This document shows positions 3,485 to 22,005 of a stretch of DNA of 23,257 nucleotides, piece after piece. This stretch comes from an uncultured Alcaligenaceae bacterium. GTDB lineage: Bacteria > Planctomycetota > Planctomycetia > Gemmatales > Gemmataceae. Below the pieces are notes generated by a model. The model saw only the letters and a program-made list of their open reading frames with translations. It searched no databases and had not been told where the DNA came from. Numbering within the stretch: position 1 is the first letter of the stretch; each line of letters opens with the position of its first letter. The stretch spans positions 1 to 23,257 of the forward strand of contig CAZFGM010000015.1 in assembly GCA_964518515.1 (NCBI GenBank). The letters run 5' to 3'. A program made the translations under genes and the position numbers.

Positions 3485-3543
3485 GTGGGGCACGTTTTCA
3501 ACGTGCCGGTGGTGGGGGCAGGCACGTTGAAAACGTGCCCCAC
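3485..3543. repeat. Intercistronic palindromic element, family C (two self-complementary hairpins that also pair with each other).
   Basis: Arms GTGGGGCACGTTTTCAACGTGCC (3485-3507) and GGCACGTTGAAAACGTGCCCCAC (3521-3543) are perfect reverse complements. Each arm is itself a hairpin (GCACGTT..AACGTGC). Lies in the 88-nt gap before the large-subunit gene. Confidence 0.6.
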
Positions 3544-3563: not shown

Positions 3564-5174
3564 ATGATGGCCGACGCCGCGCTGCCCTGGTTTTTCAATG
3601 CCCAGCCGATCTCGCTGCGCGACCTACCGTGCTTGACGGTGGACCGGTTCCGCGCCACGCTGCTCGACCAGGTCCGCCAGGGGAGTCGCGTCGTCGCTTT
3701 TTTCGGACAATTCCGAGCCGGAAGCGTAAGCGACGGTCTAACCAAACCCGTCGCTTACGCTTCCGGCTCGGACGTCGCTTACGCTTCCGGCTCGGACGGA
3801 GCACAGGGGGTGGTCCGCCTCTACGCGGTCCTGGCCCAGCGCGAAGAAGGCCAGTTGACCGCCCTGGCGTGCGACGTGGACGATCGCTACCCCGCCCTAA
3901 CACCGGATTGCCCGCAAGTCCACTGGTTCGAGCGGGAAATTGCCGAGCAGTGGGGCGTAATTCCGGAAGGGCATCCGTGGCTCAAGCCGATTCGCTTTCA
4001 CCGCTCGTATCGGCCCGGCCACGACGCCTGGGGCCGTTCCGCGGACGATCCCATCCAGCCGTGCGTCACGGACTATTTCCAGGTGGCGGGCAGCGAGATT
4101 CATGAGGTGGCCGTCGGGCCGGTGCATGCAGGAGTGATCGAGCCGGGGCACTTCCGCTTTCAGTGCCACGGCGAAAAAGTCTATCACCTGGAAATAGCGC
4201 TGGGCTATCAGCATCGTGGCGTGGAGCCGGCCCTGCGCGGCGGGCCAAACAAGCGAACCATTCATTACATGGAAACCCTAGCCGGCGACACGACAGTCGG
4301 CCACGCCACGGCCTACTGCCAGGCGTTGGAGGCCCTGGCAGAAACCGCGGTGCCGTTTCGGGCCCAGGCCGTGCGAGCGGTGGGCCTCGAATTGGAACGC
4401 CTGGCCAACCACACCGGCGACGTCGGCGCCCTGGCCGCCGACGTCGGCTATTTGTCCACCGCCGCCTACTGCGGTCGGCTGCGCGGCGACTTTCTCAACG
4501 CTACCGCTCTCCTCTGCGGCAGCCGGTTCGGACGCGGCCTGGTCCGACCAGGCGGCGTGGGCTTCGATTTGGAGGCCGCGCGCCTCCAGGATTTGCAAGG
4601 CCGGTTGACCGCCGCCCTCAAAGACGTGACCGGCGCCGTCAACCTGCTCTGGCATACCCCCTCGGTGCAGGCCCGCTTCGAAGAAACCGGCGCCGTGTCG
4701 CAGAGGGCCTGTCTGGAAATCGGCCTGGTAGGTCCCGCCGCCCGCGCCTGCGGCGTCGATCACGATGTCCGACACGATTTCCCGACCGGCATCTTTCGCT
4801 TCATGCAGATTCCGGTTTCCACTGCCCTCACAGGAGACGTCTTCGCCCGCGCCTACGTCCGCTGGCTGGAAATTCAGCGTTCGGGGGAATTTTTGCAGCA
4901 GCAGCTCCGCAGCCTGCCCGCTGGCCCGGTCCGCGTTCCTCTCGGGGGATTGATGCCGGACGCCTTGGTGGTGTCGCTGGTCGAGGGCTGGCGCGGGGAA
5001 ATCTGCCATGTCGCCCTGACCGACGCCCACGGCCGGTTCGCCGCCTACAAAGTCGTCGATCCGTCGTTCCACAACTGGTTCGGTCTGGCCCTCGCCCTGC
5101 GCGGCCAGCAGATATCCGATTTCCCGCTATGCAACAAGAGCTTCAATCTGTCCTATTGCGGACATGACCTGTAA
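3564..5174 (+). CDS. NuoC-NuoD fusion 'large subunit' homolog of group-4 hydrogenases (HycE/HyfG-like) lacking the N-terminal [NiFe] cysteine pair. Energy-converting hydrogenase-related (Ehr-type) catalytic-subunit homolog.
   Basis: N-terminal NuoC-like motif RYPALTPDCPQVHWFEREIAEQWGVIPEGHPWL. NuoD/large-subunit core GPVHAGVIEPGHFRF and HRGVE. The L1 motif position reads ETLAGDTTVGHATAY instead of ERxCGxCxxxHSTAY. The C-terminus reads DFPLCNKSFNLSYC instead of DPCxxCxxR. The start may be ATG 3564 or 3567 (RBS GGGAGG at 3556-3561). Confidence 0.8.
   Translation: MMADAALPWFFNAQPISLRDLPCLTVDRFRATLLDQVRQGSRVVAFFGQFRAGSVSDGLTKPVAYASGSDVAYASGSDGAQGVVRLYAVLAQREEGQLTALACDVDDRYPALTPDCPQVHWFEREIAEQWGVIPEGHPWLKPIRFHRSYRPGHDAWGRSADDPIQPCVTDYFQVAGSEIHEVAVGPVHAGVIEPGHFRFQCHGEKVYHLEIALGYQHRGVEPALRGGPNKRTIHYMETLAGDTTVGHATAYCQALEALAETAVPFRAQAVRAVGLELERLANHTGDVGALAADVGYLSTAAYCGRLRGDFLNATALLCGSRFGRGLVRPGGVGFDLEAARLQDLQGRLTAALKDVTGAVNLLWHTPSVQARFEETGAVSQRACLEIGLVGPAARACGVDHDVRHDFPTGIFRFMQIPVSTALTGDVFARAYVRWLEIQRSGEFLQQQLRSLPAGPVRVPLGGLMPDALVVSLVEGWRGEICHVALTDAHGRFAAYKVVDPSFHNWFGLALALRGQQISDFPLCNKSFNLSYCGHDL
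3711..3796. repeat. Family B palindromic element, copy 2, sitting in frame inside the large-subunit CDS. Its right arm is tandemly duplicated (2 x 24 nt).
   Basis: Perfect 25-bp arms TCCGAGCCGGAAGCGTAAGCGACGG (3712-3736) and CCGTCGCTTACGCTTCCGGCTCGGA (3748-3772). Loop tctaaccaaac. The 24-nt unit CGTCGCTTACGCTTCCGGCTCGGA repeats at 3749-3772 and 3773-3796. Translated as ...SVSDGLTKPVAYASGSDVAYASGSD... in a loop region of the NuoC-like domain. Confidence 0.6.
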
Positions 5175-5247
5175 CGAAAAAAAAGAGGATGGAGGATAGA
5201 GAATAGCGGATAGAGATAACGAATAACTCTTGTCTCTTTGGCCCCTG

Positions 5248-5277
5248 ATTGCATTTCTCCTCTTTCCTCTTCATAAT
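5248..5277 (+). promoter_or_regulatory. Sigma70-like promoter TTGCAT-17 nt-CATAAT upstream of the beta-propeller/peroxidase gene.
   Basis: TTGCAT at 5248-5253, a 17-nt pyrimidine-rich spacer, CATAAT at 5271-5276. G-rich RBS (GGGGGGAGTGGAG) at 5303-5315 before ATG 5319. Preceded by direct repeats GGATAGAGA (5192-5200, 5207-5215). Confidence 0.4.
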
Positions 5278-5318
5278 GATAAAGTTCGCCCTTGGTGCAT
5301 TTTGGGGGGAGTGGAGAA

Positions 5319-7211
5319 ATGCCGCGCTTTTACGGATTGGGTTGGGTACTGGCTGCCGTTGGCCTGGTGCTTTCGGGCGTTCACGCCGGCACCTCGAACA
5401 GCTTGTTAGATGTGTCGCCGGACGGCAAATATCTCCTGGCCGCCAACGCCGACAACGCCACGGTCACGGTGGTCGATACCCAGGGACGCAAGGCCCTGCG
5501 GGAAATCAAGGTCGGCGACAAGCCCGAAAGCGTGACCTGGATCGGCGCCGGCCCGCTGGCCGCCGCCGCGGTGTACAAGGAAAACCAGGTCGTAATTTTC
5601 AACACCCAGAATGGTGGGCTGGTCCGGCGAATCCCGGTCTCTCCGGAGCCCTACGGCATCGTGGCCGACAAGGCCGGCAAGCGCGCCTGGGTCACCCACG
5701 AATATCCGGGCACGATCAGCGAAATCGATCTGGAAAACCATAAAGTGCTTCGCGAAATCAAGGCCGGTGCCTTCCTGCGCGGCATGGCTCTTAGCCCGGA
5801 TGAAAAGTGCCTTTATGTCGCCGAGTTTTACACGGGCATCCTCCGCGCCGTCGATCTGGCCTCCGGAAAAGTGGCCGATTCGTGGAAAGGCCACAGCACC
5901 GATAACCTGGCCCGGCACGTTGCCCTGCATCCGCGGCGGCCGAAGGCCTACCTGGCCCACCTCCGCTCGATGGTCACGGTCAACGACGGCAGCGGCTCGA
6001 TCTTTCCGCACCTCAGCATCTGCGACCTGAAGCCGGGAGAGGGCCGGCGCCGCAACGCCTTCGGCATGGATACCTTTAACAATCTATCCGTCGTTACCAA
6101 TCCCTGGGAGACCGCCCTTTCGCCGGACGCCAAACGGTTGTACGTCATCTATGCCGCCACCAACGACATGAATGTTTGCAATGTCGTGGACGATGATTAC
6201 AACGAGATGGATCGGGTCGGCGGCCTGGTGCGCCTGGGCAACAATCCCCGCGCCGTGCGCGTCAGTCCGGACAGCAAGACGGTGTACATTTACAACGCCA
6301 TGGATTTCGCCGTCGCGGTTTACAATGCCGACATGAAATTCCTGGCCACGATCAAGGTGTGCGATCCGCCGGCGACCAAGACACCGGAGTGGGTGCGTGG
6401 CAAGATCCTGTTCAACACCTCCAATCCACCGCTGTCCAGCCGGCGCTGGGTGGCCTGCTCGTCGTGCCATCCGGACGGCCATCACGACGCGCGCGTGTGG
6501 CAGCAACCGGAGGGGCTGCGCAAAACGACCGCCTTTTTCGGCATGGCCCACACGCATCCGTTGCACTGGTCCGCCGACCGCGACGAGGTCCAGGATTTCG
6601 AGTTCACCATCCGCAGCCAGCTCATGCAAGGCCGGGGCTTGTTGACCGGGCCGATCAAGAGCAAGCGCGGTTTCGAAAAAGTTGAGCTGGAGGAAAAAAC
6701 TTCCGGCCGATCCAAGGACCTGGACGCCCTGGCCATTTACTGCAACTCCTTCGATTTCCCGCTGTCGCCGCACATCCAGGCGCCGGGCAAGCTCAAACCC
6801 GAGGCCGAGCGCGGCAAGAAGCTCTTTTTCAGCAAAGAAGTTGGCTGCGCCGGCTGCCATAGCGGGCCCTACTTCACCGATAGCAGCTTGAAAAAACCGT
6901 TTGTCATGCACGACGTCGGCACCGGCAACGACGATCCCACCGAGAAAATGGGGGCCATATATGACACCCCCACCTTGCTCGGCATATATCGCACCGCTCC
7001 CTACCTTCACCATGGCAAGGCCAAGACCCTGCACGAAGTCTTGACCGTGTTCAACAAACAGGACAAGCACGGGCGGACCAGCCACCTCAAGAAAGACGAG
7101 CTTGATGATCTGGCGGCGTTCCTGCAAGCGTTGCCGTACGAGCCGCCGCCGGCGGTGACGCCCAACACGGTGGACTTCCGCGTGCCGCCGGGGTACCAGG
7201 CCAAGCCGTAA
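5319..7211 (+). CDS. Secreted fusion protein: N-terminal YVTN-type beta-propeller repeats plus C-terminal di-heme cytochrome c peroxidase (CCP/MauG family) domain.
   Basis: Signal peptide MPRFYGLGWVLAAVGLVLSGVHA. At least four SPDxKxLYVxN...V.VVD repeats (SPDGKYLLAANADNATVTVVD, SPDEKCLYVAEF, SPDAKRLYVIYAATND, SPDSKTVYIYNAMD). Two CxxCH haem motifs (CSSCH, CAGCH). CCP-like WSADR and CAGCHSGPYFTD. TAPYLHHGKAKTLHEVL resembles CCP TAPYMHDG but Met is replaced by Leu. Confidence 0.75.
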   Translation: MPRFYGLGWVLAAVGLVLSGVHAGTSNSLLDVSPDGKYLLAANADNATVTVVDTQGRKALREIKVGDKPESVTWIGAGPLAAAAVYKENQVVIFNTQNGGLVRRIPVSPEPYGIVADKAGKRAWVTHEYPGTISEIDLENHKVLREIKAGAFLRGMALSPDEKCLYVAEFYTGILRAVDLASGKVADSWKGHSTDNLARHVALHPRRPKAYLAHLRSMVTVNDGSGSIFPHLSICDLKPGEGRRRNAFGMDTFNNLSVVTNPWETALSPDAKRLYVIYAATNDMNVCNVVDDDYNEMDRVGGLVRLGNNPRAVRVSPDSKTVYIYNAMDFAVAVYNADMKFLATIKVCDPPATKTPEWVRGKILFNTSNPPLSSRRWVACSSCHPDGHHDARVWQQPEGLRKTTAFFGMAHTHPLHWSADRDEVQDFEFTIRSQLMQGRGLLTGPIKSKRGFEKVELEEKTSGRSKDLDALAIYCNSFDFPLSPHIQAPGKLKPEAERGKKLFFSKEVGCAGCHSGPYFTDSSLKKPFVMHDVGTGNDDPTEKMGAIYDTPTLLGIYRTAPYLHHGKAKTLHEVLTVFNKQDKHGRTSHLKKDELDDLAAFLQALPYEPPPAVTPNTVDFRVPPGYQAKP

Positions 7212-13185: not shown

Positions 13186-14130
13186 ATGGATCACGATCAA
13201 CGGTTCAAGATTATGCTCCAGGAATTTTTCGCCGATTTCCTGCAGCTTTTCTTCGCCGATTGGGCCTTGCGGCTGGATTGTCAGGCGGTGCAATGGATTG
13301 ACAAGGAAGTTTTTTCGGACCCGCCGGAAGGCCGGCGTCGCGTTCTGGATTTGGTGGGCAAAGTGCCTACCCGCCAAGGCGTTTCCGGCCAGAGGCCGGG
13401 GGATCCCGAGCAATGGTTGGCCCTGGTCCACATCGAGATCGAATCGCCGGACCGGACCACGCCGCTGAAGCCGCGCCTGTTCCGCATGTATGCCAACTTG
13501 CGGGACAAGTATGAACTGCCGGTGTTGCCGATCGGCTTGTTTCTCAAAGTTGGCCTTGAGGGCATCGGCATCGAGCTTTACGAAGAATACTTCTGGGAAT
13601 TCTGCCCGGTGACGTTTCGCTTTTTGTATGTTGGGTTGCCGGCCCTGGATGGGTTAAAATATGTGCAAGGCGACAACTGGCTGGGCGTGGCCCTGTCGGC
13701 CTTGATGAAAATCCCAAAGGAAAAAGTGGCCTGGCTGGGCGCCGAAGCGTTGCGCCGTCTGGTCGAGGCCCCCTTGACGGATCAACAAAAATTTTTACTG
13801 GCCGAATGCGTGCAAGCCTACCTGCCGTTGGACGAGGCACAGCAACAAGAATACGAACGTATCGTGGCCGGCGAACCTTATCAAGGAGTAACAGCGATGA
13901 ATACGACCTGGTTTGAAAAAGGTATCAAAAAAGGACGTGAAGAAGGACGAGAAGAAGGAAGGGAAATAGGTCTGCGCGACGTATTGCCGGACCAACTCCA
14001 GGACCGATTTGGTCCGTTACCGGACAAAGTCTTGGATCGGCTTCAGAAAATGTCCGGGGAAGAGTTGACCAAGGTGGGTAAGGCGCTCGTGCGGGCCAAG
14101 TCGCTAAAGGACCTGGGCTTAGAAAGCTGA
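13186..14130 (+). CDS. Rpn-family-like (PD-(D/E)XK-type) recombination-promoting nuclease homolog with C-terminal DUF4351 domain
   Basis: N-terminus MDHDQRFKIMLQEFFADFLQLFF...IDKEVFSD...RRRVLDLVGKV...HIEIES gives a D...ExE/Q nuclease-like pattern. C-terminus LQDRFGPLPDKVLDRLQKMSGEELTKVGKALVRAKSLKDLGL is DUF4351-like. Starts 3 nt after the permease stop. Confidence 0.6.
   Translation: MDHDQRFKIMLQEFFADFLQLFFADWALRLDCQAVQWIDKEVFSDPPEGRRRVLDLVGKVPTRQGVSGQRPGDPEQWLALVHIEIESPDRTTPLKPRLFRMYANLRDKYELPVLPIGLFLKVGLEGIGIELYEEYFWEFCPVTFRFLYVGLPALDGLKYVQGDNWLGVALSALMKIPKEKVAWLGAEALRRLVEAPLTDQQKFLLAECVQAYLPLDEAQQQEYERIVAGEPYQGVTAMNTTWFEKGIKKGREEGREEGREIGLRDVLPDQLQDRFGPLPDKVLDRLQKMSGEELTKVGKALVRAKSLKDLGLES
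13897..14130 (+). CDS. Candidate internal in-frame small ORF (77 aa) expressing only the DUF4351 domain of the Rpn-like gene (RpnS-like).
   Basis: AAGGAG at 13883-13888 lies 8 nt before an in-frame ATG at 13897, inside the larger ORF. The same cctatcaaggag...gcgATGaa context precedes the stand-alone paralog at 14210. Confidence 0.3.
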   Translation: MNTTWFEKGIKKGREEGREEGREIGLRDVLPDQLQDRFGPLPDKVLDRLQKMSGEELTKVGKALVRAKSLKDLGLES

Positions 14131-14209
14131 GAGCAATCAAGCGTACCTAGCCCGAAGAAGCCCAGTAGCAAGAATTTACCGGCAGGAACCCTATCAAGGA
14201 GAAAATGCG

Positions 14210-14452
14210 ATGAACAAAACTCCCTTTGAAAAAGGATACGAAGTAGGATTGATAATTGCCGCATGGGAAATGAAAGAAAATGGCCTCCGCGATCTCCGCG
14301 AGGTTTTGTTAGACCTACTTCATGAGCGATTTGGTCCGTTATCAGACAAAGTTTTGGAACGGTTTCAGAAAATGTCCGGGGAAGAGTTGACCAAGCTGGG
14401 TAAGGCGCTCTATCGGGCCGAGTCGCTGGAAGACCTGGGCTTGGAAAGGTGA
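14210..14452 (+). CDS. Stand-alone DUF4351 small protein, a recent duplicate of the 3' part of the preceding Rpn-like gene.
   Basis: 80 aa. The second half (ERFGPLSDKVLERFQKMSGEELTKLGKALYRAESLEDLGLE) is about 90% identical at the nucleotide level to 14010-14125. The RBS context is duplicated too. Confidence 0.6.
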   Translation: MNKTPFEKGYEVGLIIAAWEMKENGLRDLREVLLDLLHERFGPLSDKVLERFQKMSGEELTKLGKALYRAESLEDLGLER

Positions 14453-19637: not shown

Positions 19638-21372
19638 CCTGACCTTGTTCGCGCAGAAAACGACCGGCGTGCCCGTCTCCACCGAAGTGCTGGTGATGAT
19701 CATCGTCACGGCCCTGGTGTTTTTCAGCCTGCTCATGCTGCTGATCACCCGCTACAAGCGCTGTCCGTCGAACCGCATCCTGGTCATTTACGGCAAGTTC
19801 ACGGGCAGCGCCACCGGCACGCGCTGCCTGCACGGCGGCGCCCGCCTGGTCCTGCCCCTGGTCCAGGATTACGCCTACCTGAGCCTGGAGCCGATCCAGA
19901 TCGAAATTCCCCTCAAGGACGCCCTGTCCATTGAGAACATTCGCATCAACGTGCCCAGCGTCTTCACGGTGGCCGTCGGCGAAGACGTGGAAACCATGCA
20001 CAATGCCGCCATCCGCCTTTTGGGCCTGGAAACCCGGCAGATAAAAGAGCAGGCCGAGCACATCATCTTCGGCCAGCTCCGCCAGGTGATCGCCTCGATG
20101 CGCATCGACGACATCAACCGCCACCGCGAGCAGTTCCTGCACAATATCCAGATGTCGCTGGAGCCGGAGCTGAAGAAAATCGGCCTGGTGCTGATCAACG
20201 TCAACATCACCGACATCACCGACGAATCGGGCTACATCGAGGCGATCGGCAAGAAGGCGGCTTCCCAGGCCGTCCAGCAGGCCTTGATCGACGTCGCCGA
20301 GCAGGAAAAGCATGGGCAGATCGGCATGGCCGAGGCCGGGCGGGAAAAGGCGATCCAGGTGGCCAGCGCCACCAAGCTGCGCGAGATCGGCACGCGCGAG
20401 GCCCTGCGCGACCAGGCCGTCCGCGTCGCCCAGCTGGACAAGGAGCAAAAAGTCGGCGAGGCCACCGCCGGCCTGGAACGCGACGCCCAGATCAAGGAAT
20501 CGCAGCGCCAGCAAGCCGTGCGCATCGCCGAGCTGGACAAGGAGCAGAAAATCGGCGAGCAGACCGCCGGCTTCGAGCGCGAGGCCCAGGTCAAGAACGC
20601 CGAGCGCACGATGCGTATCGCCATCGCCGACGCCAACGCCAAGGCCATCAGCGGCGAGGCGCACGCCCAGGCCGAAGTCGTCCTGGCCCAGGCCAACTTG
20701 CAGGTCAAGCAGGCGGAGGCCTATCAGCTCGGCGAGACGCGCAAGCGCGAGTCGGAAGCGGCCGTGCTGGAAGCGCAGAACCGCGCCCTGGCCAAGGCGG
20801 CCCTGGCCGAGGCGGAAAAGGTCGAGGCCGAGCGTCGCGCCGCCGTCGAAGCGCCGGCCAAGGCCGAAAAAGCCAAGACCATCGTCCAGGCCGAGGCCGA
20901 GGCGGAAAAGCGCCGCATCGAGGCGGAAGGCCAGGCCGCCGCCACGTTCGCCAAGCTCGAGGCCGAAGCCCGCGGCCAGTACGAAATTCTCGCCAAGAAG
21001 GGCGAGGGCCTTCGCCGCATCATCGAAGCTTGCGGCGGCGCCCCGCAAGCCTTCCAGCTCCTCATGCTCGAACATCTCGACACGCTGGCCCAGACCGCCG
21101 CCCAGGCCATTTCCAACATCAAGTTCGACAAGGTCATCGTCTGGGAAAACGGCAACGGCGCCCTGGCCGGCGGCACCAGCAACACCGCCAACTTCCTGCA
21201 GAACCTGGCCCGCACCATGCCGCCCATGATGCAGATCATGAAAGACATCGGCGGCGTCGAGCTGCCCGACTACATCGCGCGCTTCACCCAGGATCAGAAA
21301 GCGGCCGATGGCGGGGCTCCCAGGGCGGAAACCAAGCCGGAGAGGGAAACGCCGTTGCCGAAGAAGGGGTAG
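19630..21372 (+). CDS. Flotillin-family SPFH-domain protein (FloT/YqiK-like) with a long Ala/Glu-rich coiled-coil region
   Basis: N-terminal TM helix, then SPFH core (RILVIYGKF...LSLEPIQIEIPLKDALSIENIRINVPSVFTVAVGED). Extended EA-repeat coiled coil (AEAEKRRIEAEGQAAA...). Conserved flotillin C-terminal block. Confidence 0.85.
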   Translation: MSNLTLFAQKTTGVPVSTEVLVMIIVTALVFFSLLMLLITRYKRCPSNRILVIYGKFTGSATGTRCLHGGARLVLPLVQDYAYLSLEPIQIEIPLKDALSIENIRINVPSVFTVAVGEDVETMHNAAIRLLGLETRQIKEQAEHIIFGQLRQVIASMRIDDINRHREQFLHNIQMSLEPELKKIGLVLINVNITDITDESGYIEAIGKKAASQAVQQALIDVAEQEKHGQIGMAEAGREKAIQVASATKLREIGTREALRDQAVRVAQLDKEQKVGEATAGLERDAQIKESQRQQAVRIAELDKEQKIGEQTAGFEREAQVKNAERTMRIAIADANAKAISGEAHAQAEVVLAQANLQVKQAEAYQLGETRKRESEAAVLEAQNRALAKAALAEAEKVEAERRAAVEAPAKAEKAKTIVQAEAEAEKRRIEAEGQAAATFAKLEAEARGQYEILAKKGEGLRRIIEACGGAPQAFQLLMLEHLDTLAQTAAQAISNIKFDKVIVWENGNGALAGGTSNTANFLQNLARTMPPMMQIMKDIGGVELPDYIARFTQDQKAADGGAPRAETKPERETPLPKKG

Positions 21373-21397
21373 CCGAGATATACCGCGACATTATTAA

Positions 21398-21481
21398 GCC
21401 GGCGAGCTTGCTCGCCGTGGAGGGGATGCTGGCCGCGGCGAGCAAGCTCGCCGGCTAAATGAAATGCCTCTTTTTTTTACG
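21398..21481 (+). terminator. Large perfect hairpin (20-bp arms) downstream of the flotillin gene, followed by a T8 run. Putative terminator / mRNA 3' stabiliser.
   Basis: GCCGGCGAGCTTGCTCGCCG (21398-21417) pairs perfectly with CGGCGAGCAAGCTCGCCGGC (21436-21455). T-run at 21471-21478. The U-tract is about 15 nt from the stem, so this is not a canonical intrinsic terminator. Confidence 0.4.
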
Positions 21482-21639: not shown

Positions 21640-21945
21640 GTGACACTGAGCAAAGTGGAACAGGCGATCCTGGAGATTCTGGACAGACGTCCAAGCGAAG
21701 AAATCCAGGGCCGAGAATTGAGAGGTTTATTGCGAAACCGGGGGTTCCGAAGGACTGCCCCGGCATTTGTATTCACCATGATGCGGTTGGAGGACAAAGG
21801 AATGATTACGTGCCGGGATGAAGTTCGGGATGTTGAGGGCGTGGAAGTCAGAGAACGCTATTATCGCCGCAGAGAAAACCTACTTGAAAAGGAGGAATTG
21901 ACGGATACCCTGCATGATGTCTGGTTCGGCCAGGAGAAGGAGTAA
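21640..21945 (+). CDS. Small PadR-like winged-helix transcriptional regulator (about 101 aa). GTG start preferred.
   Basis: ...EIQGRELRGLL...TAPAFVFTMMRLEDKGMITCRDEV...RERYYRR fits the PadR pattern (YGYEL...G.LYP.L.RLE..G.I......RKYY.LT). TAGGAG RBS at 21627-21632 sits 7 nt before GTG 21640. Lower GC than flanks. Confidence 0.5.
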   Translation: MTLSKVEQAILEILDRRPSEEIQGRELRGLLRNRGFRRTAPAFVFTMMRLEDKGMITCRDEVRDVEGVEVRERYYRRRENLLEKEELTDTLHDVWFGQEKE

Positions 21946-22005
21946 GAGAAAGAGTAAGAGTAGAGAAAGAGAAAGAGAAAGAGAAAGAGAAAGAGTAGGG
22001 TAGGA
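21946..22005. repeat. Purine-rich hexanucleotide microsatellite (GAGAAA)n between the PadR-like stop and the DUF4432 start
   Basis: Five perfect GAGAAA units at 21963-21992 within a longer GAGWAA/GAGTAG tract (21946-22005). It abuts ATG 22006. Confidence 0.8.

Follow-up and report, generated by a model that had tools for sequence, protein, structure and literature searches.

We analyzed a stretch of 23,257 nt (positions 1–23,257 of contig CAZFGM010000015.1, assembly GCA_964518515.1; hereafter the window) from a metagenome-assembled genome (MAG) of an uncultured member of the Gemmataceae, and found that a gene for a complex-I-family subunit carries a cluster of palindromic repeats within its coding sequence while its reading frame stays open. 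The gene occupies positions 3564–5174 of the forward strand and encodes a fused NuoC-like and NuoD-like large subunit (Pfam domain models Complex1_30kDa and Complex1_49kDa), and the cluster corresponds to an insertion of 87 nt, or 29 codons, at positions 3711–3797 of the same strand relative to orthologous genes. The repeats resemble the repetitive extragenic palindromic (REP)-like units that accompany class 3 HUH-Y1 proteins (TnpA_Y1). We consider it probable that a doublet of such units was inserted in frame and that a third unit was then added; the cluster is most likely a recent, near-neutral passenger of selfish DNA and not an adaptation.

A repeat search of the window identified two perfect arms of 25 nt (3712–3736 and 3748–3772, 100% complementary) separated by a spacer of 11 nt, and the segment 3773–3796 is likewise perfectly complementary to the left arm. 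These results bear out the original prediction, made from the sequence alone, that the open reading frame (ORF) at 3564–5174 contains a second copy of a palindrome found elsewhere in the window (family B) with perfect 25-nt arms. The AACCAA loop described in that prediction is present and is shared with the spacer of the intergenic copy at 1916–1976; it is, however, part of an unpaired spacer of 11 nt (3737–3747, TCTAACCAAAC) and not a loop of six bases. Tandem Repeats Finder recovered the predicted tandem duplication in the right arm (3749–3798, period 24, 2.1 copies, 100% matches, unit CGTCGCTTACGCTTCCGGCTCGGA). Occurrences of the 22-nt arm with three mismatches or fewer number five in the window and zero in 100 shuffles, and these five units make up two loci, the cluster at 3711–3797 and the doublet at 1916–1976. 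The insert itself consists of three units, one forward and two reverse, that are almost identical (one base different). Unit 1 (3713–3736, forward strand) begins with a CCGA foot (3713–3716) followed by an imperfect hairpin, GCCGGAAGC-GTAA-GCGACGG, whose core is that of Table S1 in Quentin et al. (2018). Unit 2 (3748–3771, reverse strand) is inverted and forms with unit 1 a doublet with a perfect stem of 25 bp that resembles a REPIN (REP doublet forming hairpin). Unit 3 (3772–3795, reverse strand), which was found by a fuzzy match with one mismatch, follows unit 2 head to tail with no spacer, so that the 24-nt "duplication" corresponds to a single complete unit (foot and hairpin) and contains nothing else. 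The RNA of the region 3700–3810 folds with −66.7 kcal/mol (z score −7.8), and a single unit folds weakly (−4.4 kcal/mol, z score −0.9). No Rfam family matched the hairpin at the gathering score; the only matches were to miRNA precursors below threshold, of a kind that any long hairpin yields.

As had been predicted, the ORF is open through the element, and its translation reads ...VVAFFGQ-FRAGSVSDGLTKPVAYASGSDVAYASGSD-GAQGVVRLYAVLAQ..., where GAQGVVRL resumes after the insert and AGSVSDGLTKPVAYASGSD is the predicted product of reading through the hairpin. In the database, the corresponding protein (P0001, 535 aa) begins with the second ATG (3567); its approximately 8,000 homologs typically have about 506 aa. 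Comparison of orthologs for the presence or absence of the segment, which the original prediction had proposed, revealed that all 18 of the 18 aligned homologs (504–516 aa, 68–79% identical) lack the approximately 29 residues at exactly this point, where they carry a turn of 5–10 residues (QPLAES-VRL in the closest). In the DNA of the closest ortholog, locus L113, the corresponding sequence is ...TTCGGTCAA|CCGCTGGCCGAGTCCGTG|CGGCTC..., and the 87 extra nucleotides of the window directly follow the Gln codon CAA; removing positions 3711–3797 leaves Q-GAQGV-VRL, a turn of the same length as that of the ortholog. The insertion is therefore real, and the protein alignment together with the DNA alignment with L113 corrects its predicted size of about 86 nt and 28 residues to 87 nt and 29 residues.

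One alternative raised at the outset was that the start of the gene is misannotated and that the element is intergenic, lying between a leader ORF and the true start. REPs near the 5′ ends of genes are often non-coding (PMC3733652), and two other copies of the family (L025 and L004) are located just upstream of true starts. However, residues 1–47 align with all homologs, R29 is invariant, and F46 and G47 are present in at least 90% of the sequences. The shared 47 N-terminal residues place the start codon upstream of the insert and refute a start downstream of position 3800, and we find a misannotated start barely credible. A model computed with AlphaFold2 on the homolog alignment, which has a modest mean predicted local distance difference test (pLDDT) score of 60, likewise places residues 41–49 as a strand in the NuoC-like fold, with block-mean pLDDT values of 86–94 over residues 11–50 and of 84–91 over residues 81–110. 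Strands 41–49 and 83–91 flank residues 53–79, which are at pLDDT values below 50, and the insert is predicted by this model to be a disordered excursion at a β-hairpin turn of the NuoC-like domain. The length of this turn also varies among homologs, with five additional residues in P0067 and two in P0015.

The palindrome or its tandem copy could also be an error of metagenome assembly: the window comes from a MAG, assembly can go wrong at repeats and palindromes, and there is no second copy of the insert allele on record (an exact look-up of P0001 found no other contig or allele). The insert is nevertheless exactly in frame with colinear orthologous coding sequence on both sides, its 87 nt are shorter than typical final k-mers or read lengths, and a homologous in-frame copy is present in an independent assembly (L068, encoding P0121, described later). 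An assembly artefact is, in our judgment, highly improbable.

To place the repeat in a family, we looked for its 19-nt core, GAGCCGGAAGCGTWAGCGA, in a single genome of each species; the core matched at least 112 stretches, and the counts that follow for loci, arms, units, and sites apply to the matches listed. Among the 80 loci for which record titles were read, most are from Planctomycetota MAGs (Gemmataceae, Gemmatales, Singulisphaera, Pirellulaceae, Planctomycetaceae, Phycisphaeraceae, and Tepidisphaerales), and the remaining loci are from Bryobacteraceae and Acidobacteriaceae MAGs and one Abditibacterium MAG. An inverted partner is located no more than 90 nt away for 109 of 155 arms. With three mismatches or fewer, the 112 loci listed contain 228 units, 216 of which have a GTNA loop (GTAA in 132, GTTA in 53, GTGA in 17, and GTCA in 14), and the most prevalent feet are ACGA (90), CAGA (35), CCGA (33), CGGA (20), and CTGA (11). 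The core is nearly identical across two phyla, and the spacers and outer flanks differ between lineages. We also observed a lineage variant with a CTGA foot and the ending ...GCGACC in Bryobacteraceae and Acidobacteriaceae MAGs (L019, L021, L028, L044, L053, L073, and L075).

These features correspond to those of a described system. Quentin et al. (2018; BMC Genomics 19:475, PMC6006769) found class 3 HUH-Y1 proteins mainly in Planctomycetes, Acidobacteria, and Proteobacteria, reported that their genes are flanked by atypical structures with a CnGA foot, and counted about 600 copies of class 3-associated sequences in Solibacter usitatus. For ADG69454.1 of Planctomyces limnophilus, Table S1 of that study lists two sequences, CACGAGCCGGAAGCGTGAGCGACGGGT and ACGAGCCGGAAGCGTCAGCGACGGGCATTT, with the core ACGAGCCGGAAGCGTCAGCGACGGGC and the unit form GCCGGAAGC-GTCA-GCGACGGGC preceded by an ACGA foot. 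The window arm, T-CCGA-GCCGGAAGC-GTAA-GCGACGG, matches the P. limnophilus sequence, and it shares the 5′ CnGA foot, the core as published, and an imperfect hairpin whose loop of 4 nt reads GTNA. The variant of Solibacter and Legionella in the same table, CCGC-GA-CC GTAA GG-GA-GCGG, is changed on both inner-stem sides relative to CCG-GAA-GC GTAA GC-GA-CGG, which supports the existence of the imperfect hairpin, and the weak fold of a single unit is what is expected of an "atypical" structure. Judged by these sequence matches, the insert family is one of REP-like units of class 3 HUH-Y1 proteins. Of the original assignment to a REP- or Correia-type element, the REP-like part thus stands and the Correia-like part does not, and the view that a mobile palindrome was inserted in frame is supported by membership of the element in a dispersed repeat family. 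We rejected the candidate reading of the arm as one of the CGTC-tagged REPs defined by Di Nocera et al. (2013) because its stem, its loop, and the spacing of the tag do not fit. At the protein level, a search with a concatenated query of 44 aa that included the element-encoded peptide found nothing beyond one candidate, and a HMMER search with the 33-aa insert peptide against 1.84 billion representatives found only an unrelated RCC1-repeat protein, a failure that we attribute to the shortness of the peptide and the variability of the spacer. The families designated A and C were present in no fetched locus.

Genes for the presumed partner enzymes are located beside some of the units. In L074 (Gemmataceae), a Y1_Tnp gene (1641–2201; PF01797, E value 5.8e-8) lies between complete doublets at 1626–1678 and 2190–2240 and encodes the motifs NHVH, W-T, and YVIEGQ (Y....Q). 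We noted that the stop codon of this gene is the TAA of the GTAA loop in the downstream unit (...TAC GAG CCG GAA GCG TAA). A Y1 gene in L108 (3793–4446) has units at 3763–3784 and 4420–4486, and a homologous gene is present in L019, an Acidobacteriaceae MAG; the motifs NHVH/NHLH, W[TA], and Y....Q are present in the family-linked Y1 genes. HUH-Y1 genes are thus flanked by units in a REPtron-like manner in L074 and L108. Clustering of the ORFs beside units revealed no dominant neighbouring family, and a cluster of three members is the Y1 gene. A link to a horizontally spread enzyme family would account for a core that is near-identical across phyla. To our knowledge, the class 3 HUH-Y1 system has never been assayed biochemically.

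The origin of the third unit can be explained in two ways. Replication slippage, which was originally proposed as the source of the 24-nt repeat, is possible, but it need not be the sole source since the repeat is a whole REP unit. Alternatively, the third unit may have been inserted at the level of single units by an HUH-Y1 enzyme beside an existing unit. The 24-nt period that comprises a whole unit and nothing extra is consistent with such an insertion, as are same-orientation unit pairs at other loci (L005, L007, L017, and L061) and the clusters that are typical of REP systems (PMC3733652). Yet the tandem units of other loci are 29–65 nt apart and not abutted, a tandem duplication has no defined phase, a hairpin would favour slippage over the length of an arm, and the junction has a CG microhomology of 2 nt. 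Enzymatic addition of the third unit is, therefore, possible but doubtful.

Among the three frames through a unit, one contains a TAA stop codon, one encodes the basic peptide PSRKRKRR or RRLRFRLG, and one encodes RAGSVSD or VA(Y/N)ASGS; the insert in the window uses the last of these. The same frame is used at other sites within genes. In L068, a full family B doublet (645–708) is in frame in the gene for the Ddl-like ATP-grasp protein P0121 of a Gemmataceae genome, encodes IERAGSVSDGVYSVANASGSSK, and is located in a linker of variable length among homologs, and in L088 the peptide SSVANASGSEK lies inside a match to the HZS_alpha-like domain. The solo unit in the gene for a P-type ATPase in L109 encodes LNRAGSVSDPL in the same frame and may be a chance match; presumably, it causes no change in length relative to CopA sequences. 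We estimate that the 19-mer would match about 10–16 times by chance in 596 Gb, and for these two reasons L109 is treated as uncertain. An additional copy is present in the N-terminal region of a secretin ORF (L092). Across the 116 sites sampled, we counted 30 ORFs from stop to stop that run through a unit, few of which are supported by domain matches; the family is overwhelmingly extragenic, with perhaps about 2–3% of the sampled sites intragenic. In 3–4 of the 3–4 domain-supported intragenic cases the frame is the same. The element in the window, in summary, is a repeat within a conserved ORF that is absent from orthologs, keeps the frame, and introduces no stop codon.

Recurrence of one frame raises the question of whether the hairpin is adaptive, that is, whether its RNA is cut by RNase III, hinders decay, or pauses translation within the operon, or whether the added loop provides a new surface for interactions. 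The very stable RNA fold of the region and the presence of a palindrome in every intergenic spacer of the operon would be compatible with a role of this kind. Against it, no homolog has the element at the host-gene site, Rfam contains no matching family, the peptide is predicted to be disordered, and the frame bias is more simply explained by the purging of copies read in the stop-containing and poly-basic frames. We regard an adaptive hairpin as very unlikely.

The host protein is HycE-like, as had been proposed, but in fold only. Its best solved relative is E. coli HycE (7z0s_E) both by sequence (E value 2e-43) and by fold (template modeling score 0.73). The NiFe ligand motifs of 7z0s_E are replaced in P0001, RVCGICGFAH by TLAGDTTVGH and DPCYSC by NLSYCG, and the replacing residues (about 236–246 and 525–535) show little or no variation among the homologs. 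Both the N-terminal and the C-terminal CxxC ligands of group 4 HycE-type [NiFe] hydrogenases are missing. Because all four NiFe-binding cysteines of HycE are absent from P0001 and its close homologs, the complex is, on the evidence of its sequences, hydrogenase-related but not a hydrogenase. The fused NuoC and NuoD fold is common to the host protein and to HycE of formate hydrogenlyase, and NuoL/H/K/N-like membrane subunits as in Ehr-type complexes are likewise encoded in the host operon; HycE has pairs of NiFe-binding cysteines that the host protein is without. These features are consistent with a complex of the "Ehr" (energy-converting-hydrogenase-related) type (Marreiros et al. 2013).

The operon consists of genes for a NuoH-like protein, a NuoK-like protein, a NuoN-like protein, and the large subunit, in this order, with four palindromes within it. 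Orthologous operons of L113 and L114 contain none of the four (the spacers in L113 are 2–39 nt long), from which it follows that all four are derived insertions in the lineage of the window. In four of four orthologous loci, a small-subunit gene with Fer4 and Oxidored_q6 domains (NuoB/NuoI-like) directly follows the large-subunit gene (7559–8335 in L113, 6528–7298 in L114, and 6663–7442 in L115). This gene is absent from the window; on the 3′ side of the host gene (5175–5320), an AT-rich spacer of 118 nt with AGAGGAT repeats is followed by a gene for a secreted β-propeller/cytochrome c protein.

The operon may, therefore, be decaying, in which case the insertion would be irrelevant or inactivating and the gene a young pseudogene that does not yet contain stop codons. 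The lack of a small-subunit gene at its conserved position, the four palindrome insertions in one operon, and the near-identity of the units, which implies a recent event, are in agreement with decay. On the other side, all four ORFs of the operon are intact, every family-invariant residue is kept (roughly 190 residues of P0001 are invariant across the alignment), and the small-subunit gene could be encoded elsewhere in the unassembled genome. There is also no excess of lineage-specific substitutions: in Tajima relative-rate tests of 24 trios, m1 did not exceed m2 in 20, and in the other four its excess was not significant, so that rates are not accelerated on the P0001 branch. On balance we consider decay of the operon unlikely, and the conserved sequence suggests that the protein may have retained its function and may tolerate the insert.

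We thus favour an in-frame insertion of a doublet followed by the addition of a third unit, which would have proceeded as follows. Presumably, the units are mobilised by a class 3 HUH-Y1 enzyme that uses single-stranded DNA as its substrate. The doublet would have landed directly after codon 48 (Gln) in the NuoC-like N-terminal domain, and the third unit would have been added after it, in place. Because the 63-nt and 24-nt pieces of the insert are both multiples of three and the frame used contains no stop codon, the gene stays open, and the insert would be read as a Gly/Ser/Ala/Asp-rich segment of 29 residues in the length-variable β-hairpin turn. Several points weigh against this explanation. 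No class 3 tnpA gene is encoded in the 23-kb window. Translation through the GC-rich 25-bp stem is assumed from the sequence, and a perfect RNA stem of this length could be a target of RNase III. The near-identity of the three units means that the insertion may be so recent that selection has not yet judged it, and without the small-subunit gene the complex may already be non-functional. Finally, the nearest homolog of P0001 is 75–79% identical and no empty-site allele is available from a close relative.

The three other palindromes of the operon occupy its intergenic spacers. The second copy of the insert's family, a family B doublet, is located at 1916–1976 between the NuoK-like and NuoN-like genes (stop codon at 1907, next ATG at 1995), where the spacer in L113 is 2 nt. 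The other two resemble the canonical GT[AG]G REPs in Table S1 of Quentin et al. (2018): a GTAG-tagged doublet at 1197–1253 between the NuoH-like and NuoK-like genes (unit fold −9.9 kcal/mol, z score −5.8) and a GTGG-tagged doublet at 3485–3543 in the spacer that directly precedes the host gene (unit fold −8.9 kcal/mol, z score −3.9), where the orthologous spacer is 10 nt. Both have the GT[AG]G tag and the strong short hairpin of canonical class 2 RAYT (REP-associated tyrosine transposase)-type REPs, whereas the family B unit lacks a GTAG tag and folds weakly. A palindrome of a different repeat family with 27-nt arms (TCCGAAAAAGGGGTCAGGACC...) is present at a similar position in L115 (4932–4985), where the ORF annotated as NuoN-like ends immediately ahead of the large-subunit start.

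Elsewhere in the window, a palindromic cluster at 21393–21460, just after a Band 7/SPFH gene, has arms of 28 nt that are 93% complementary and an 18-nt period of about three copies (unit CGGCGAGC..GCTCGCCG), and is a fourth repeat type within 23 kb. An ORF for a 597-aa Band 7/SPFH-domain protein contains a tandem repeat of 99 nt, or 33 codons (20406–20603, 79–83% identical), and a purine-rich microsatellite of the GAGAAA type with about 10 copies (21934–22003) is located in the spacer upstream of a DUF4432 gene. Two DUF4351-containing ORFs (13186–14452; 314 aa and 80 aa) have similar starts and a duplicated 3′ part of 161 nt that is 84% identical; they are located between the gene for an FtsX-like permease and that for its ABC ATPase, an arrangement that suggests insertion into a transporter operon.

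It is already established that palindromic repeats can lie in frame within genes, and the class 3 repeat family itself was described in 2018. The class 3 TnpA_Y1 sequences (PMC6006769) share with the window the unit, with a CnGA/ACGA foot and GCCGGAAGC-GTNA-GCGACGG, occur in the same taxa (Planctomycetes and Acidobacteria), are likewise scattered in many copies, and are found on both sides of a small Y1 gene; intragenic copies were not reported in that study, whereas the three units of the insert are located in coding sequence. Compared with class 3 REPtrons, the window is without tnpA and has a perfect inverted doublet with a third, abutted unit. Rickettsia palindromic elements (RPEs) are likewise inserted in frame in unrelated conserved genes, and the added peptide segment is thought to be compatible with the fold (PMC10969869; PMC3733652). 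RPEs differ in being about 100–150 bp long, in belonging to reduced genomes of obligate intracellular bacteria, and in being frequent within genes, compared with about 2–3% of the 116 sampled sites of the window family. Dimers or clusters of GTAG/CGTC REPs within ORFs encode 20–30 residues in many species (Di Nocera et al. 2013, PMC3733652), including Opitutus terrae, a bacterium of the Planctomycetes/Verrucomicrobia/Chlamydiae (PVC) group; these REPs have strong stems of 8–13 bp and GTAG/CGTC tags, unlike the weak imperfect hairpin and CnGA foot of the window unit. REPIN/RAYT systems (class 2 TnpA_REP) share with the window an inverted REP doublet, a long hairpin, and presumed mobilisation in trans by a single-copy HUH-Y1 gene, and differ in enzyme class and unit architecture. 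RAYT-associated REPs tend to be lineage specific, and the near-identical core of the window family across phyla is unusual in this respect.

As far as these comparisons reach, class 3 units located within genes and predicted to be translated, the cluster of three units, and the recurrent reading frame appear to be new. The finding leaves the understanding of such complexes and repeats unchanged; its value is that of a case, exactly bounded by comparison with orthologs, in which a REP-type element is predicted to be read as part of a complex-I-family subunit. It ties an intragenic element to the little-studied class 3 HUH-Y1 system and draws attention to a NuoC-like-domain loop that seems able to take up large insertions. 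It also carries a warning for annotation, namely that class 3 hairpins can be coding or can supply a stop codon, as the TAA in the GTAA loop does in L074. A broader proposal, which we consider decidedly unlikely, is that class 3 units actively give rise to new protein loops, one unit at a time, in free-living Planctomycetota: they would enter coding sequences repeatedly, survive in only one frame, and be able to expand in place; the frame kept may then be the one for the flexible Gly/Ser/Ala/Asp-rich peptide RAGSVSD...VA[YN]ASGS, and the expansion here may have been from two to three units. If this were true, the family would be a free-living counterpart of the Rickettsia RPEs and would provide a natural substrate set for the class 3 enzyme.

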